From Candidatus Bathyarchaeota archaeon (GTDB lineage Archaea; Thermoproteota; Bathyarchaeia; Bathyarchaeales; Bathycorpusculaceae): a DNA stretch of 64,000 nucleotides. This document shows, piece by piece, positions 38,263-49,490 of this stretch. Location of the stretch: NCBI GenBank assembly GCA_963702095.1, contig OY969706.1, positions 2,688,001 to 2,752,000 on the forward strand, given 5' to 3'. Position 1 is the stretch's first letter. Every line of letters starts with the position of its first letter. Both the position numbers and the translations under genes were made by a program. The notes beneath the pieces were generated by a model. It was given only the letters and a program-made list of their open reading frames with translations. It was not told the origin of the DNA and made no database searches.

Positions 38263-40886
38263 TTATGGTCGTTTTCTAATCATCAATGCCAGTATCACAC
38301 CGACAATGACAATGACGATTATGATTGCAACGCCGATGGCAGCGATGGTCATAGTGTTATCGACAGGTTGCGCTGTTACTTGTGTTGGTGCGGGTGTTGC
38401 TGCGTCGCCTGCATAGAAAGTTGTTGAAGCGGATGATCCGTAGTACGAATTAGATCCTGCGAAGCTTGCGATAACGTTGAAGTTGCCTGAGATGTCGGGG
38501 GTCCATGTGAATGCATAGTTGCCATACGCGTCTGAAGTAGCGGTGCCGATTTGTCTAAAGTTGCCGTTTGCATCGACTACGCTGATGGTAACTGGAACTC
38601 CAGTTGTATTTGCGGGGATTGGCTGTTGCTGATAGAGGTATTCCATAAATTGACTTTGGCTTACGTCAGATACGCATGGAACGCCGTTTGGAAATAGCGG
38701 CCTGTTCTGTTTGTTGTGTGCCTGCGGATTTGTCGATTACAGTTCCCCTTATTGTTATTGGGGTAGCTGTGCTGACGCCAACATCAGGTGCGGTAACGGT
38801 CAAGGCGCTTGGGCCCTTTCCGAAGCAGTATATTTGGTCATCATATGCGTTGAGTGTTACAAGATAGCCATCAGTGACAATTGTTCCCACCTGTCCCCAA
38901 CATTCTTCTTTCCATATTTCCTGTCCGTTGGTTGCGTTGATGCAGCGAATATCCGAACCACGCCATTGGGGATTCGTTGGAGTGTGCTCAGACGAAATGG
39001 TATATATCTTTCCATCGGCAGCAGCGACTATGTTTAGGGGGTAATTGCCATAGGGAGATTCAGTGGCAGTGCCAGTAGCGGTGTAATTCCACAAGACTTG
39101 TCCGGTTGTGTCATCGTAGCAGAATAGTACTCCAGCGTAGCCAGCTGAATACATCTTGCCGTCAGCGACTATAGTAGTTAGAGCATTTGAGCCTTGCACA
39201 AGAAAATCTAAATCTGGTTGACTCGGAGTTGGACCCCATAACAGCTTTCCAGTGTTCAGGCTGTAGCCAGACCATGTCCTAGTTTCCTTGTCATATATTG
39301 TCCAGACACCGGTACTTGGGTCCATAGGTCCAAAGCTTAAGGTTTGGTTGCCTGGTGGCGCAGTGTAGTTCTGATTAAACAGTATAGTTCCTCGGTTTGA
39401 TGATTGTAGGTTTATAGCAAATACTGACCAGGGATCGTTGGTTCCGACCGTAGTCCCTCCACTTGCGGCGGGTGCCGGGTTTAGACCACCTGTACCAACT
39501 ATTTCGACGGGGTCTACGCTTGTTGGCCAGCCGTTGCCTGCTAGAACTCTTGCTATTTTTGCGGTTGAAGGTATTGAGCCTGCTGCCAATGTTATGTTCC
39601 AATCATATCCATATTTAGCTCCATCATATGTTGCATTAGGCTGAGGTCGCCAAATTGTGAGAACAACCCCAAAAGGCCCGAGAGGTGTGGTTTGAATGCA
39701 AGTAGTTGAGTTCCATTGAGCCAGCCAACCTAACGTAGTTGCAGTTGGTGCTTTTAGCACGTAAATTAATTCATTGCCCGCTTGATCTACATATCTTGTC
39801 CCTGTTGGCGCGTTATTGATTTGGCATATGTAATTGCCTGAGGAAGCATCGAACATTTGCCATGTTGATCCTGAAGTGCTCCATAAGTATGGAAATACAC
39901 CGTGTTGATTTGATGATTCATAGTTTAATTCTTGACCAAATGACAGTGCTGGCCAATATGTTGAAGCCAAGTTTGTTGCAGAAAATAACGACGGAAGAGT
40001 GCTATTCGTAAATGATAGTTTTTGCCCTGTCACCAAGTTTACTGAATACCAGCCGTTTCGTGGGTTGTTTAAGTTGTTGTAGTATAGGACGCCATTCATG
40101 ACAAATCCGTACCATCTGGGTTCATATGTTACTCCATAGAAATACTCGTTATTTCCAGCGTTTCCTCCTGCGACGGCCTCCAGCCCATATTGGGCTTGTC
40201 CACATTACGTGACCGCTCTCTGGTGCCGTTGAGTATGGGTTGAGCAGTGTTCCTGCAGCGTCGTAACCAGTTTCAATCCAATCGCCTGTGATAGTTGCCC
40301 ATTGCCTATTCATACCATTTATTGGTCGTGTCCAGTACTCTGTTGGAAGCGGAGTTTCTTGCCAAGCTTGAACGAGTTGATTCTGTACGTTTACTGAGAT
40401 TTTATCACTAATGGATGGGCCAACATAATAGTTGTAATTGACGCCATTTAGAGTTGTGTTATATGTTTGTCCGGGGAAGCTAAATTGGAAATAGTATGTG
40501 CCGTTTGTTTTAGGAACGTAGGTGGTGTAAGTCGATCCAGTTGGATCAGACGTAAATGGACCTAGTGTATCAGTGGTACCGTCTGGTTTAGTTACGTTCA
40601 ACATAAAGCCGCCTAGTTGCGGGTATGAGTATGGTGCAATATTTTGAATCCATGGAGCTGATGAGTCAAGAAGCATAACAACAAGCAGGTTTTGGTCAAC
40701 GCCTACTGGATTAGGTGTGCAGTTTATGTACGCATACGAGGCTTTGTAATAATCTATTGAAGAAGCAGCGTTAGTGTTTGGCAGTGAAATCATTGAAGCG
40801 ACTATTGAAAGCACTAGAATCATAGCAATTGCGATAGTTACAGTTTTATTTTTTGCAGAATAATTTCTTTTTATATTTTTTAACAT
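38263..40886 (-). CDS. large secreted PQQ-like beta-propeller protein with C-terminal TM anchor; apparent frameshifts near 40170 and 38690
   Basis: Signal peptide, PNPVGV, PLPTEYWTRPI, repeated G..LW/Y..TG motifs, YD.QIYCFGKG, TGVPV, TM plus RKRP; three ORFs join in register. Confidence 0.85.
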
Positions 40887-44747: not shown

Positions 44748-45760
44748 CTATTTCCGTTGAGTGGACTCCAGTGAGATATAAGTTACTTGCGGTGCTGCTT
44801 CAGGAACCTCTGTGGGCGGACGAGCAGGTACTCTTAGGCGTATTAAGCGTTTTTCTGTGCCGGGTATGCTGCCTTCTAGTAGGACGTATGGTCCATTGAC
44901 CTCTCCATATCGGACGTAGCCGCCTTTTATGGTGACTTCTTTGCCGTCTTTGCCGATTTTGAGTATGCGTTTGTTGAATTCGATACGTTGGTGATAGCCT
45001 GTTTGTCCTGCGCGTGGTATGCTGTACATGAGGTGGTGGGGGTTCCATGGTGGAGGGTGGCGATGCCGCGTTTGGTTTTTCTGCCTTTGTGCTGGAGTTT
45101 GGTTACGTGCCAGCGTTTAACTGGGCCTTGGAAGCCTTTGCCGACGGTTACGCCGGCTATGTCGATGTATTGGCCTTCTTTGAAGACTTCTTCGGGCGTT
45201 ACTGTTTTGCCCAAGAGTTGTTTGGCGTAGTCGAATTGTTGCTGGGTGTTTCCGCCGCCGATTTGGATTTCCATGGTTTCGGGTTTTTTCTTGGATAGGC
45301 TGGTTTGGCTGGGTTGGGTGGCGGTTATAACTCGGACTAAGTCGGTGTTTTCGAGGTTGTCTTGGACTTTCTGCAGCATGGCGTCTGTGTTAAAGTTTTC
45401 CGGCAGGACCAAAAGTCTGCCCAGCAGTGCCGGCGGTTCTTTCATCCATGCTTCTGTGAGGTTTAAGAGCCCATAGGGTGTTTTCTGGTAAGTGCGTATG
45501 CCACATATGATGATTGGTGGCGTTTCAAGTATGGTTGCTGCCCGCATGACTTCTTTACCGAAGTTTGGTGAACGCTTCCTGTCCTCAATAGTGAAGACAT
45601 AGGTCATACCTGCCTTGTAAGATGTGAATCCTAAAAGCCTAGGAGTTTCAGACTCTATTTTTGGCCAGTAACGAATCCGTGCAGTAGGTTTCTTTGCACG
45701 ATGCCTTGGCAAATAGGCTAGTGAACCATGTTTTGGAGCATGAGTTTTACGATGTCCCAT
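44748..45760 (-). CDS. rpl3p: 50S ribosomal protein L3, apparent frameshift near 45050
   Basis: PKHGSLAYLPR, YKAGMT, GKGFQGPVKRW; continues PRAGQTGYHQR, GSIPG in the second frame. Confidence 0.95.
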
Positions 45761-45950
45761 TGATCATCCGCTTCGCGCCTTTAGCAAATAGTGCAAGAGG
45801 TTATAAATGTTGCCGTTTAAAACGCAAAAGGATGGTTAGGCTGAAAAAAAACATTTTCTAAGCTCCAGCCTAGTATAGGATGCTGTTTGCCTTCAGTGGC
45901 TGTCCATCGTTTGCAACACTACACATAGAAACGGGTGCTTTTGACTTTTT

Positions 45951-46058
45951 CTATAGTAGTTGTTGCCGAAAACCCCCTATACACAACAACAATCAGAGGC
46001 TTGTGAAAACGATTGTATTTCAACATTGGCGTTTGGTTTACGTTGCAGACTGGTTGTG
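45951..46058 (-). repeat. intergenic repeat copy, M3 (46026-46058) then hairpin M2 (45951-45993)
   Basis: Reverse complement cacaaccagtctgcaacg...attgttgttgtgtatagggggttttcggcaacaactactatag. Confidence 0.8.
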
Positions 46059-46184
46059 TAACAAACCACAAGCAGTCGCAGGTAATTAACGACAGATAGG
46101 ATACATTCATGAATTCCGTGGTAAAAAAAGAACTTTCCAAAAAAGCCATGGTAAAAATTATTGGCATCGCAACCAGAGCAGAAG

Positions 46185-46391
46185 TTAAATCATGTCAAAA
46201 TGTTCTAGGGCATCCTTTATATTCCCAAATTTTTCAATGGGACAAGGATTAGTTCGCTCTTTTCCCTGTCGGTTTGGTGCTTTCCTCATTTTAATGTTGC
46301 ACTGAGATTTAACGTCGGCAATCCAGCAAGTCTTAGGTATGAAACCATATTTCTGTTTTACATAATCTTGGATTTCTTTGTAAGTAGCCAT
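46185..46391 (-). CDS. small stand-alone domain resembling the C-terminal extension of some RlmD/TrmA methyltransferases
   Basis: ATYKEIQDYVKQKYG...IADVKSQC...CPIEK..IKDALEHFDMI pattern recalled from that family; GGTGG upstream. Confidence 0.6.
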   Translation of the reverse strand: MATYKEIQDYVKQKYGFIPKTCWIADVKSQCNIKMRKAPNRQGKERTNPCPIEKFGNIKDALEHFDMI

Positions 46392-46405
46392 ATGACCACC
46401 AGACG

Positions 46406-46594
46406 TTAAGGATTATCGTGTTCTAGGTCAAAAAATACAACATTACAAGTCGGGCATATCTTAGCGTAAAGAATTTCATGCTTTGTATGTTTATCACTCG
46501 GTACATGAGCAGATATGAGCATTACTTCTCTAAACTGCGTATAATGTGCTTTATGGCCTAAGGGGCAAGTAATTTCTCGTTGCGGATGAGGCAT
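46406..46594 (-). CDS. small putative Zn-binding protein
   Basis: 62 aa, CPLGH...CPTC. Confidence 0.55.
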   Translation of the reverse strand: MPHPQREITCPLGHKAHYTQFREVMLISAHVPSDKHTKHEILYAKICPTCNVVFFDLEHDNP

Positions 46595-46693
46595 ATAGAA
46601 GTAGGTGCCAAAAAGCGGTTTTATGTTTTTTGGTGGCTAAGTTCGAGTGCCTGTTACTTGTATTGGATAGAGAACAAACGGGACTGGCAAGGA

Positions 46694-46930
46694 TCACTTT
46701 AGTCGCCTTAGCTCTGCCTCAAACGCCTCAGTGGATATGTTGGTAAACGATTCTTTATGCTTGCCCAGTTCATACATGAAATCCCCGAGCGATAAACCAG
46801 CCAACTTTGTGGCTTGCCCAACAGAGATTTTTTTTTCTTTGTAGAGTATTAGGGCTAAGTAAAGCTTCAAATCGTCTTCGCTAAGGTCATTGACCAAAGC
46901 TTTGGGAATGTTGAGCTCCAATAATTTCAC
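46694..46930 (-). CDS. UPF0175 family antitoxin-like protein
   Basis: ALILYKEKKISVGQATKLAGLSLGDFMYELGKH; no PIN toxin follows. Confidence 0.8.
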   Translation of the reverse strand: MKLLELNIPKALVNDLSEDDLKLYLALILYKEKKISVGQATKLAGLSLGDFMYELGKHKESFTNISTEAFEAELRRLK

Positions 46931-47001
46931 TTGTCGTCAAATGGTTGGACGTTACTAAAATACCTTGTCAAAATGAGAAGAAAGAGAAAATAAGTGCAGT
47001 T

Positions 47002-48447
47002 CTAACGAGGGACAACTGCAAGGAAGGGTTCTGGACCCATTTCTGCAGTCGCATAAACTGCCAGTGATATTGCCCAGAATACGTCGTCGTGTGTGCCTTG
47101 TGGGTGGTGGTAGCCTATGGTGCCGTCTTTGTTTAGGCTGTAGCGTTCGACGTTTAGTTCGGTGCAGATTTCGCCCCGGTAAGGTCGCTCCCAATGCAGC
47201 AGTGGGTAGTAGAGTTGGTGGTTTGCCATGCGCTGTTTGAGCAGGCTTGCCATTTCGCTTTTACGGGGCACGCTAAAGTTTACGCCTTCAGCGTTGTGTA
47301 TGCCTGCTGCTTCCATGTCGGCGATGAAGCTTGGGCCTTCCCGTGTGAAGTCCACTCGGATTTTCTCGAACCCGTGCCAGCGGTCCTGCAAGGTTTTGAG
47401 GTAGCCCAATACAGTTGCGTAAATGGTGGGTTGCTGGAAGATTTTGAGGTGACGCAGCAACAACCGCCCATCCACCCGCTCAACTACGGCGAGGGCGGTG
47501 TAGTCCCTGGTCTGCGCCAAATCCAGCCCAACAAAGAATTCGCCTCGGTGCTCAGATTCGGGGTTGAATTCTTGGAGGTCTACGCCACAGGTTGCTTTTG
47601 TGCCGATGCAGTTGGCGATTAGACTTTGCGTTAGCCATACGTCTTGGTCTTCTGCCCATTCCGCCTCCATTTCCCGCCGCCAACGGATTGGGTCATCGCC
47701 CATCTGTGTCTTGATTTTTTGGATTATGCTGGGTTTTAGTGGTCCGTTTGGTTCGGTGGCTTGTTCGACGGTGACGTGGCTGGTTTTGTAGTCGGCGAAG
47801 TCTTTGTGGGTAAACATTTTGTAGAAGACGCTGTCGGTGTGCCATGGTGTGCTTGTGCAGACGAATTTGCCGTTTGTGGTGCCCAATGTGTAGAGGATGG
47901 CGTCGTAGAGTTCTTGGTCGTTGGCGACGAAGTTGAATTCGTCAGCGTAGACCACGTGCAGGGTGGGTCCGCGGATGGTTTCGGGGTTGTTTGGGAAGGC
48001 TTCGATGCTGCTGCCGTTTTGGAAGTGGATTTGGGTGCGCTGGGGCACAAAAACCAGTCTCCTAGGAAGCTTATGGGAAAGCGAGCCTATGCGGCTAAGG
48101 ATGCGTTTGGTTTGCCGCCAAGACGGACCAACTAAACCGATGGCGCTATCTGGGTGGGTGGTTGCATACCAGAGCAGAAGGGCAGCTACGATGAAGCTCT
48201 TGCCACTTTGCCGACTCCACCGGGCCGCCGTAAACTGGTTTTCAACGAATAGTTTGATGAACTCTTCTTGGTAGGCAAAGGGTTTGAAGCCCAAGATTTC
48301 TCTGCAGAAAACTGCGGGGTCCTCGCTGAGGTCCACAGTTTTCTCCAGTGCCAACCCTTCGGCTAGTAGGTCACTGTTCTGGACTTTTTGCCATGTCTGC
48401 TGGAACTGGTTGGGACGCATTGTTCTTGCTTTCGAGGAGCGCGGCAT
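47002..48447 (-). CDS. terminase large subunit-like ATPase-nuclease
   Basis: PFAYQ Q-motif, SRQSGKS Walker A, VVYADEF Walker B, TSTP motif III, VGLDLAQTRDYTA and HDD RNase H-like nuclease. Confidence 0.9.
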   Translation of the reverse strand: MPRSSKARTMRPNQFQQTWQKVQNSDLLAEGLALEKTVDLSEDPAVFCREILGFKPFAYQEEFIKLFVENQFTAARWSRQSGKSFIVAALLLWYATTHPDSAIGLVGPSWRQTKRILSRIGSLSHKLPRRLVFVPQRTQIHFQNGSSIEAFPNNPETIRGPTLHVVYADEFNFVANDQELYDAILYTLGTTNGKFVCTSTPWHTDSVFYKMFTHKDFADYKTSHVTVEQATEPNGPLKPSIIQKIKTQMGDDPIRWRREMEAEWAEDQDVWLTQSLIANCIGTKATCGVDLQEFNPESEHRGEFFVGLDLAQTRDYTALAVVERVDGRLLLRHLKIFQQPTIYATVLGYLKTLQDRWHGFEKIRVDFTREGPSFIADMEAAGIHNAEGVNFSVPRKSEMASLLKQRMANHQLYYPLLHWERPYRGEICTELNVERYSLNKDGTIGYHHPQGTHDDVFWAISLAVYATAEMGPEPFLAVVPR

Positions 48448-48831
48448 ATTTTGCCTCCATATCGTTTAGTTTGGCTTCTACTTCTCGGTAGTTGAGGTAG
48501 TCGGAGAGGATTTCTTTGTAGGCGCGGGCTAGGGTGGCGACGACTTGCAGTCGCTGAACCTCCACTTTACTGAGCCCGGGGCAGAGGCTGCTTCCAATGC
48601 GCCTGCCAATTTTTTGAGTGTTTCCTCTACGCTAGGCAACTCGGCAGGCAGGGGCAAGGTGGCGGTGGTTACGTGTCCGCTTGGTACCAATCCGAGGCGC
48701 CCGCACTTAACAAGGACTGCAGGGGCTGTTCTTCGAAGGGTTAATGCTATTGCGTCTATGGATTTGTTGGCTTCTACGAGTTTTTTGAGTTGGACTTCCT
48801 CTTCAACTGTCCAAGGTAAACCTCTTGTCAT
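48371..48831 (-). CDS. Myb-like HTH plus coiled-coil protein (terminase small subunit candidate), apparent frameshift near 48578
   Basis: PWTVEEEVQLKKLV..SIDAIA HTH; adding one C in GCCCCGGG joins the two ORFs; overlaps the terminase start. Confidence 0.65.
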
Positions 48832-48923
48832 AATCAAGACCTAAAGGGACTGGAGGGCAGAACTGCTTTTGAACTATTTTGCGCTTCAAAAAGGCGATTT
48901 GTTTAATGCTTTTTTAAAGGTTG

Positions 48924-48990
48924 ATTGCTTTTTTGTTTTGGGCTTGCAGTGGCGTTGCAGAAGGGTTGTGGCGTATTCTACAAGCAGAGG
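48924..48990 (-). repeat. intergenic repeat copy, M3
   Basis: Reverse complement tctgcttgtagaatacgccacaacccttctgcaacgccactgcaagcccaaaacaaaaaagcaat. Confidence 0.75.
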
Positions 48991-48995
48991 GGGAC

Positions 48996-49490
48996 TTAGC
49001 AAACACGTTCAATAACCTGATCCGCAGCAGCCTCGTCACTGAGACCCGCCACATCTATGGTTACATCGGCATATCTTCGGTAAAAAGGCAACCTCTCCAA
49101 AAAAAGCTGCTCCAGCCCCTTCTCTTTCAACCCAACAATTCCCCTGCCCGAAAAATCCGCAGTGCGCTTTTTGATTTCCTCCAAAGAAGCATCCAAAAAC
49201 ACCACCACAGAGATGCTCTTTAGAAACCCCATTGCCTTCTCCGAATACACGGAACTGCCTCCAGAAGAAATAACCGAATCACTTACCGTCCCTATGCCGA
49301 GTATAGCGTTCTCTTCTAAGTCCAGGAACCTTTCATTTCCTAAACAGTCGATTAAATCCTGCAGTTTCCTGTTAGTAGCTTCCTCAATAATCCTGTCAAT
49401 GTCAATAAAGCCAAAATTCAACCGTTCCGACAAAAGCAGACCTATATGACTCTTACCAACACCAGACATACCAATGAGGGTTATATTCAT
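48996..49490 (-). CDS. aroK: bacterial-type (P-loop) shikimate kinase family protein
   Basis: LIGMSGVGKS, DID, SSGGS, ERLPFYRRYAD. Confidence 0.8.
   Translation of the reverse strand: MNITLIGMSGVGKSHIGLLLSERLNFGFIDIDRIIEEATNRKLQDLIDCLGNERFLDLEENAILGIGTVSDSVISSGGSSVYSEKAMGFLKSISVVVFLDASLEEIKKRTADFSGRGIVGLKEKGLEQLFLERLPFYRRYADVTIDVAGLSDEAAADQVIERVC

Follow-up and report, generated by a model that had tools for sequence, protein, structure and literature searches.

A stand-alone terminase gene pair of proviral descent kept under purifying selection in the chromosomes of Bathyarchaeia

Why does an archaeal chromosome keep an intact terminase gene with no capsid, portal, or tail gene beside it? 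To our knowledge, a terminase has no use without a capsid, and the question is raised by a 64,000-nt stretch of the genome of a Candidatus Bathyarchaeota archaeon (C1:2688001–2752000 of G000, a one-contig genome of 2.94 Mb that is 90% complete), which in its full length we call the window. It carries a gene for a terminase large subunit (TerL) and, directly upstream and overlapping it, a small partner gene that resembles a small terminase subunit (TerS). A reading of the window from its letters alone (the sequence-only reading) had described this TerL as an intact orphan and not part of a decaying provirus. We are highly confident that the two genes are a terminase pair and that selection acts on them, and the descent of this two-gene cassette from the packaging module of tailed proviruses of Bathyarchaeia resembling BATPV1 is well supported.

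The TerL protein matched the Pfam model Terminase_6N over residues 78–277 (e value 5.4e-19, 69.2 bits with a cut-off of 22) and the PHROG_2 profile "terminase large subunit" over residues 52–466 (e value 3.4e-40), and residues 306–464 matched Terminase_6C slightly below its cut-off (e value 1.5e-4, 22.2 bits with a cut-off of 22.6). Chains of T4 gp17 aligned with residues 58–213 (e value 2.7e-13), placing SRQSGKS of TerL over SRQLGKT, VVYADE over MIYIDE, and TSTP over TTTP. Following the T4 literature, we take these stretches to be the Walker A motif, the Walker B motif with the catalytic glutamate, and the C (coupling) motif, and TerL accordingly has the motifs of an ASCE ATPase of the Terminase_6 or T4 gp17-like kind. 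Farther on, the stretches GLD, EGV, and HDD, which we presume to hold the catalytic nuclease residues, are invariant in 38 family members; together with the span of the PHROG_2 match and the near-cut-off Terminase_6C match they identify a C-terminal RNase H-like nuclease. Conservation reaches well beyond the motifs: provirus TerLs have 110 positions with a conservation of at least 97%, and of these 96 are retained in the clade of the window copy (P1, defined below) and 102 in a second clade, P2. The intactness of the ATPase and nuclease motifs, as stated by the sequence-only reading, is borne out by the Pfam, PHROG_2, and gp17 matches. NCBIfam held no match for TerL or its partner.

The surroundings of the pair are those of a housekeeping region. 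On one side lies the shikimate kinase gene aroK, and further flanking genes are PCNA and primase-like open reading frames (ORFs) and the ribosomal protein genes rpL3-L4-L23-L2-S19, identified by reading their translations by eye; aroK, the pair, and the ribosomal genes are all on the minus strand. Head and tail proteins of related proviruses gave no tblastn matches in the window, and none of the seven matches to the tyrosine integrase model PF00589 in the genome lies there. With no integrase match, no flanking repeats beyond chance length, and housekeeping genes on either side, the window does not show the marks of an integrated provirus. These results agree with the sequence-only reading both on the flanking genes and on the lack of virion genes and integrases in the window. 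The same picture was found at related loci: portal and capsid genes are missing from the window and, within about 10 kb, from those 16 P1 loci whose flanks are adequate; they do accompany TerL in more distant relatives.

The partner gene is found directly upstream of TerL in 78 of the 80 viral and 78 of the 80 genomic related loci compared, and because it holds the TerS position so consistently we regard it as the TerS equivalent of this virus family, a conclusion that also rests on its size and architecture. Like a TerS, it is small, has an N-terminal helix-turn-helix (HTH) domain followed by central helices, and lies upstream of terL with an overlap. A profile of the partner matched the GcrA DNA-binding domain (e value 2.8e-5) and Myb (e value 6e-5), and the best PHROG match, obtained with the partner copy of locus L034, was to "transcriptional regulator, D5-like" (e value 1.3e-11). 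An AF2 model of the partner orthologue at locus L122, built from a 50-sequence alignment, has a pLDDT of 82 and helices at residues 9–20, 25–32, 36–46, 68–82, and 89–138; in a Foldseek comparison its N-terminal domain matched the GcrA DNA-binding domain (5yiu) with a target-normalized TM of 0.84 and a probability of 0.99. The HTH was the only part of the model with a match in the PDB, where Foldseek found neither a full-length nor a TerS match, and searches of Pfam, PHROGs, NCBIfam, and PDB sequences gave no match of the partner to a described TerS family. The sequence-only reading, which had seen an HTH and coiled-coil gene outside the recognizable TerS families, was thus right about the families; it had not seen that the frame is split or that the gene holds the place of a TerS. 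A prediction of the TerL–partner complex from alignments scored 0.00, gave no verdict, and counts neither way.

In the window, the partner is divided between two ORFs in different frames, of which the second overlaps the TerL start, and the break falls within a run of C (table 1). Partner orthologues are single ORFs of 142–178 aa, and at both full-length paralogues of the pair in G000 the partner is one intact ORF (150 or 146 aa) overlapping TerL. The rpL3 gene of the window, 3.5 kb away, has lost one base in a C-run at about 45049–45050 relative to its orthologue in genome G005, which shifts its C-terminal third into another frame. Because rpL3 shows the same kind of loss, the break in the partner is probably an assembly indel as well. 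We also considered a programmed frameshift and ruled it out, since all eight aligned orthologues are in a single frame and the break is within a homopolymer. The rpL3 break itself points to homopolymer indel errors in this assembly, and elsewhere in the window, at 38666–40886, two adjoining same-strand ORFs of 477 aa and 245 aa resemble one frame-split surface protein, which may be another assembly indel.

TerL relatives are widespread in these archaea and their viruses. Matches were found in 33 of 41 related genomes (G000 counted), among them 21 of the 24 congeneric ones, with up to ten in a genome, many of them full-length and many of them fragments with stops. IMG/VR held 152 TerL relatives on viral contigs, and the best 80 of these are 54–69% identical to the window TerL. 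In those 80 viral loci, the gene order (in our own family labels) is up411-c50-c16-c17-tube-c9-gp10-like-tape-measure-like-baseplate-c4-c10-partner-TerL-c3; besides the partner, c3 and c4 were each found in 73 of them, c5 in 62, and the tail tube in 38. Locus L152, which has the full module and a TerL 65% identical to that of the window, lies on the contig of BATPV1, a match made at the level of the contig; PMC11705971 gives BATPV1 as a 33,358-bp provirus of Bathyarchaeia (JAAKEZ010000002_pro), and PMC11697101 gives a 46.8-kb siphovirus-like provirus in a Bathy-6 genome. We therefore conclude that the more distant TerL relatives are bona fide tailed proviruses. One odd relative is found at L175, on a contig binned as Methanocella sp., and on the matching viral contig L088: a TerL 69% identical to the window copy is contained within an 841-aa open frame with c16, c50, and up411 directly upstream and neither a partner nor tail genes, which might be a variant made by deletion and fusion, or else a contig in the wrong bin.

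The closest relatives are of another kind. In the best 80 genomic loci, all with TerL, c3 directly follows TerL in only 36 and tail genes are present in only 13–19, and across all 183 loci, 38 that had adequate flanks were classed as pair-only, that is, as TerL and partner without the rest of the module. The TerLs nearest to the window copy (69–94% identity) form a clade of such pair-only loci at varied chromosomal sites. In a FastTree phylogeny of 165 TerLs and an outgroup, this clade, P1, comprises 27 rows including the window copy and has a support of 100; 16 rows are pair-only, nine have flanks too short to call, and two are labeled as module-bearing only via stray hits. P1 is nested among module-bearing proviruses and its sister is the module-bearing locus L136. 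Two further pair-only clades, P2 (16 rows) and P3 (3 rows), were found, and the pair-only label changes 19 times on the tree compared with a mean of 30.6 after shuffling, none of 500 shuffles being that low. A quick IQ-TREE analysis of 86 rows gave SH-aLRT values of 100, 99, and 98 to P1, P2, and P3 as these had been delimited with FastTree. When the neighbors of 29 P1-lineage loci were clustered, the only families common across subclades were TerL (29 loci), the partner (24), and small AbrB-like proteins (6). The P1 copy at L028 is directly followed by a 59-aa remnant of c3, which is a trace of provirus origin. We also asked whether a different structural module is hidden at the pair-only P1 loci and rejected this, as neighbor clustering revealed no further shared family and as in the window, at L122, and at L133 the flanks consist of collinear host DNA.

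The sequence-only reading had proposed this phylogeny and neighborhood comparison, and it had named closest homologs in complete proviruses together with relaxed selection as the pattern that would speak against an orphan gene in use. The first part of that pattern holds only halfway, in that provirus copies exist but are the more distant relatives (54–68% identity), and the second does not, as selection is not relaxed. Relative to the syntenic orthologue in G005, the window TerL has nonsynonymous and synonymous divergences (dN and dS, by NG86, with dS above about 1.5 being saturated) of 0.053 and 0.81 and a dN/dS of 0.065. The adjacent rpL2, rpS19, rpL3 (N-terminal part), rpL23, and rpL4 have a dS of 0.82–1.2 and a dN/dS of 0.056–0.119 in the same comparison. 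At the protein level, TerL is 91% identical and rpL4 83%; aroK is 79%, PriS about 70%, and PriL about 56% identical in other comparisons. The two halves of the partner have a dN/dS of 0.10–0.28 across comparisons. Median pairwise dN/dS values, binned by dS, are 0.086–0.114 in P1, 0.065–0.099 in P2, and 0.072–0.100 among provirus copies; P1 and provirus copies are equally constrained. Because TerL and its partner are conserved about as strictly as ribosomal protein genes, the pair is probably still in use. The view that this is not a decaying provirus thus holds: the dS of TerL equals that of adjacent ribosomal genes, and its nearest relatives are other orphan pairs.

The dS values also bear on inheritance. 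Relative to the closest species (L138), TerL has a dS of 0.565, within the host range of 0.44–0.74. Relative to L122, its dS is 0.69, whereas the nine of its 11 flanking host genes that yielded an estimate lie at 0.97–2.96 and the other two are saturated, and relative to L125–127 it is about 1.0 compared with 1.3–3 for host genes. The low TerL values can be explained by constraint on synonymous sites or by exchange that occasionally takes place between genomes. The cassette is vertically inherited between close species and is relocated, replaced, or lost over longer times.

Comparison of sites shows how small the inherited unit is. In L122–L127 and L138, blastn homology to the window ends between 47003 and 47030 on one side and between 48893 and 48931 on the other, so that the homologous unit consists of both genes and 60–100 bp upstream; in more distant relatives the alignment covers only a shorter stretch in the interior. 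The AT-rich stretch upstream of the partner is, from its sequence, a candidate for a promoter of the cassette's own. The pair adjoins the same ribosomal operon in G005 (L124) as in the window and adjoins aroK in L138; in L125–127 it is on the other side of the PCNA-primase block and inverted, and in L122, L123, and L133 it is at other sites. At L133 the pair and one 148-aa gene occupy an intergenic spacer whose counterpart in G000 is about 170 bp and empty, and at L122 the pair shares a 5.2-kb islet with genes for an AbrB-like protein, a methyltransferase, and a membrane protein, a site that is empty in L133; the L133 and L122 sites are both empty in G000 and in each other. Repeat searches at both ends of the cassette, for the window, L133, and L122, returned only imperfect matches of 12–33 nt of a chance type and no credible terminal inverted repeat. 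At four loci, a TerL 3' fragment of another lineage lies 0.5–2.5 kb downstream of the intact gene (table 1), which suggests cassette replacement or insertion at resident cassettes. At 1452407–1452779, G000 itself retains what deletion has left of a second P1 cassette (partner N-terminus, 64 aa; TerL C-terminus, 28 aa), and the corresponding place in G005 carries an intact one (L027). Turnover of the cassette by loss, relocation, and replacement is real. Between the cassette and the fragment at L125 there are small AbrB-like ORFs and ORFs of 127–134 aa.

The same genome holds a larger relative of the pair. By tblastn, G000 has two more full-length TerL copies, at 1090402–1091847 (66% identity) and 1210468–1211913 (64%), and three short TerL fragments. 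The first of these, locus B, is 1.64 Mb from the window and is followed by c3. Upstream of TerL are c4, c10, a YqbQ-like tail or baseplate protein, a short tape-measure-like protein, an HK97 gp10-like protein, and a Phage_tube_2 tail tube, and farther upstream the head is represented by a scaffolding protein and a major head protein (PHROG_267, e value 1.1e-12). This head-tail cluster (C1:1.089–1.106 Mb) has its own partner and TerL. Pfam searches of the whole genome for capsid (PF05065) and portal (PF04860, PF05133) had found nothing; because the PHROG scan later gave the major head protein of locus B, we attribute these blanks to sensitivity. The genome search for capsid and portal genes proposed by the sequence-only reading accordingly succeeded for capsid and tail genes, at a paralogous TerL, and failed for a portal, none being identified in G000 by any profile that was run.

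Some features of these regions stand apart. In the provirus-like region C1:1081000–1112000 (L005, L202), c3 (L005:7947–9392) is located right after TerL and encodes 480 aa, in which an ABC-type ATPase is fused to a GNAT-like domain; an 842-aa Piwi-domain protein, a DEAD/ResIII helicase, and other defense-like genes adjoin c3; two opposite-strand genes break the stretch from c4 to the tail genes. The pAgo-like gene of locus B is not common to other loci. A fourth, distant TerL at about 554 kb has an open frame of 439 aa and matches Terminase_6N with an e value of 2.4e-4. Its region (C1:554159–561023; L004, L007) includes an adjoining distant c3-like gene at about 555.6–556.5 kb and a tyrosine integrase 6 kb away (560562–561023), and is probably a separate integrated element.

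What the pair does must be judged from this pattern. We tentatively propose, at somewhat under an even chance, that it is a capsid-less but still functional terminase acting on procapsids supplied in trans. TerL retains the whole conserved surface and not only the catalytic residues, and so probably still acts as a terminase on the procapsids of related viruses or proviruses. The small subunit would bind a recognition site, and TerL would cut the DNA and pump it into procapsids that the cassette cannot make. These would come from a related virus or provirus, locus B with its own capsid gene being a candidate. Helper packaging might thereby be diverted, interfering with the helper, and the cassette might be transduced along with neighboring chromosomal DNA, to be placed by recombination at homologous sites or at sites of resident cassettes. 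Transduction followed by recombination would explain how the cassette spreads and is replaced without an integrase, and why fragments of other lineages lie next to it. A stronger form would make the cassettes packaging-only satellites, that is, minimal selfish TerS-TerL elements that initiate headful packaging at their own place in the chromosome, fill capsids of related viruses, transduce themselves and adjacent genes, and insert or replace by recombination; this we consider doubtful.

Several points weigh against use of procapsids in trans. P1 copies are present in 11 of 25 genus genomes by our own classing, and no PF18906 tail-tube gene was found in four of these 11 (G002, G010, G022, and G023; 86–95% complete), so that P1 does not need a resident helper of that type. 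Neither a pac site nor a terminal repeat or target duplication turned up. Vertical inheritance at ribosomal-like constraint suits a gene that benefits its host just as well as a selfish one, and the partner break, if real, would leave the window copy without its small subunit. The figures on which the reading draws have limits of their own, in that the three clades supported by IQ-TREE were defined from the earlier FastTree, the choice of loci by best TerL match favors intact copies, and dS values saturate.

The same constraint and inheritance at syntenic sites could instead mark a host-domesticated antiviral module, in which the terminase miscuts concatemers of BATPV-like viruses or outcompetes their terminase for procapsids, with no transduction of the cassette. 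The company of the cassette agrees with this, as it often lies beside genes of toxin-antitoxin or restriction-modification type (UPF0175/PDC-S70 in the window, the AbrB-like gene and methyltransferase at L122, and the AbrB-like proteins in six of the 29 P1 loci), and so does its presence in genomes with no resident tail-tube gene. However, neither TerL nor the partner matched any family of the PADLOC-DB v2 models, copies are lost or deleted in sister species, and several old paralogous lineages per genome, with changes of site and adjacent fragments, look like an element with its own dynamics; we consider the antiviral module unlikely, if not strongly so. Distinctly unlikely is a DNA transaction that needs no capsid, whether by a cellular translocase-nuclease for repair or segregation or by a unit resembling a homing endonuclease, in which the HTH targets the empty site and TerL cuts it. 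Intact ATPase and nuclease motifs, presence or absence at precise intergenic sites with no integrase, and the foreign fragments beside intact copies would all suit such a use, but the provirus-invariant positions are kept across the whole protein, which argues that all terminase contacts are still needed, and neither the missing target duplications and terminal repeats nor the patchy distribution of P1 in the genus would be expected from it.

The cluster at locus B raises the question of whether the cassette packages DNA for a head-tail cluster elsewhere in the chromosome, as part of a dispersed system resembling a gene transfer agent (GTA). Co-occurrence goes in this direction, the tail-tube gene being present in seven of the 11 P1-bearing but three of the 14 P1-less genus genomes, although related genomes are not independent. 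Because the resident cluster has its own partner and a TerL only 66% identical to the window copy, and because four P1-bearing genomes show no PF18906 tube gene, this reading is weakened to an improbable one; moreover, in PMC11705971 related clusters are published as integrated proviruses. Very improbable, finally, is a functionless provirus remnant whose long ORF has not yet decayed. The family does decay, with many fragments and copies with stops, the deleted remnant in G000, a frame-broken TerL at two of the 29 P1 loci, and the frame-split partner of the window itself. Yet TerL is full-length and open at the other 27 loci, a neutral 1446-nt frame would not stay open at a dS of about 0.8, and the whole pair-only clade retains both genes; as for the partner, its frame split falls within a homopolymer, and the same assembly has broken rpL3 at another such run. 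It is the selection data, with a low dN/dS at a syntenic site and a host-like dS, that disfavor a remnant.

The cassette is close to several known systems and differs from each of them. It shares with the packaging genes of BATPV1-like proviruses the TerL fold family and the small HTH partner overlapping the TerL start, but in the window it lacks adjoining portal, capsid, tail, c4, c10, c3, and integrase genes, and its clade is pair-only. Domesticated genes of defective prophages, reportedly treated by Bobay and colleagues in PNAS in 2014, are likewise virus-derived, vertically inherited, and under purifying selection in a host chromosome; here, unlike in those cases, only the packaging pair is kept, with no obvious use without a capsid, and there are several old paralogous lineages that change sites. 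Among phage satellites, Staphylococcus aureus pathogenicity islands and other phage-inducible chromosomal islands (PICIs) redirect packaging by means of TerS or Rpp, and capsid-forming PICIs have their own TerS and TerL. They share the proposed logic of an own packaging specificity and helper-made capsids, but, unlike PICI, P4-like, and capsid-forming PICI satellites, the cassette has two genes and an archaeal host, and its dependence on a helper is only proposed; no integrase, replication or regulation module, or att sites were found, the two genes being all that is common to the 29 P1 loci. RcGTA-type GTAs are virus-derived packaging genes kept by the host and vertically inherited, as the cassette is, and their terminase is in or with the head-tail cluster. 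The G000 cluster, unlike these, has a terminase of its own, and some P1-bearing genomes show no tube gene. A full-text literature search found no description of stand-alone terminase cassettes in archaea, and a preprint on an Asgard satellite concerns a different kind of element.

Between TerL and rpL3 (45761–47001) there is a variable stretch, in which G005 has two unrelated opposite-strand genes. Its genes in the window are listed in table 1 with the other features.

Table 1. Coordinates of the cassette, its parts, and other features; positions are those of the window unless a locus is named.
Feature	Position	Strand	Description
Two-gene cassette	47003..48931	-	About 1.9 kb; all that is common with orthologues in other contexts
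TerL (terminase large subunit)	47002..48447	-	Intact, 481 aa, ATG start; ASCE ATPase (N-terminal) followed by RNase H-like nuclease (C-terminal)
TerS-like partner	48371..48831	-	Myb/GcrA-like three-helix HTH, linker, long helix; last ~25 codons overlap TerL start
Partner ORF, HTH part	48529-48831/48837	-	
Partner ORF, helical part	48371-48565	-	Overlaps TerL start
C-run with partner frame break	48578..48581 (about)	-	4 C; the 8 orthologues in the DNA alignment have one base more
AT-rich stretch upstream of partner	48832..48931	-	Parts conserved among closest orthologues (8 upstream regions aligned)
aroK (shikimate kinase)	48996-49490	-	Pfam SKI, e value 2.3e-31
rpL3	44927-45760	-	Frame-broken in a C-run
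UPF0175 antitoxin-like gene	46694-46930		Pfam e value 4.4e-12; PADLOC PDC-S70 e value 2.7e-8
Cys-rich ORF	46406-46594		62 aa
PHROG_27283 protein	46185-46391		68 aa
TerL 3'-terminal fragment	L125:12137-12223		Matches other lineages better than adjacent gene
TerL 3'-terminal fragment	L128:3297-3446		Matches other lineages better than adjacent gene
TerL 3'-terminal fragment	L032:11195-11428		Matches other lineages better than adjacent gene
TerL 3'-terminal fragment	L030:6243-6434		Matches other lineages better than adjacent gene

The cassette is a domesticated or persistent provirus gene unit, and the Bathyarchaeia, which are uncultured and globally abundant sediment archaea, keep several lineages of such terminase-only pairs under ribosomal-like constraint. 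One practical consequence concerns virus-detection pipelines, since a TerL match in these genomes does not signify a provirus. A capsid-independent role, if true, would mean that cells have put the terminase motor to a new use. If the pairs are packaging-only satellites, they would be an undescribed kind of element and a built-in driver of gene flow resembling lateral transduction. If, as we tentatively propose, they act on capsids supplied in trans, no smaller packaging parasite or interference module would be known, and chromosomal genes of Bathyarchaeia would have a possible route of transfer.

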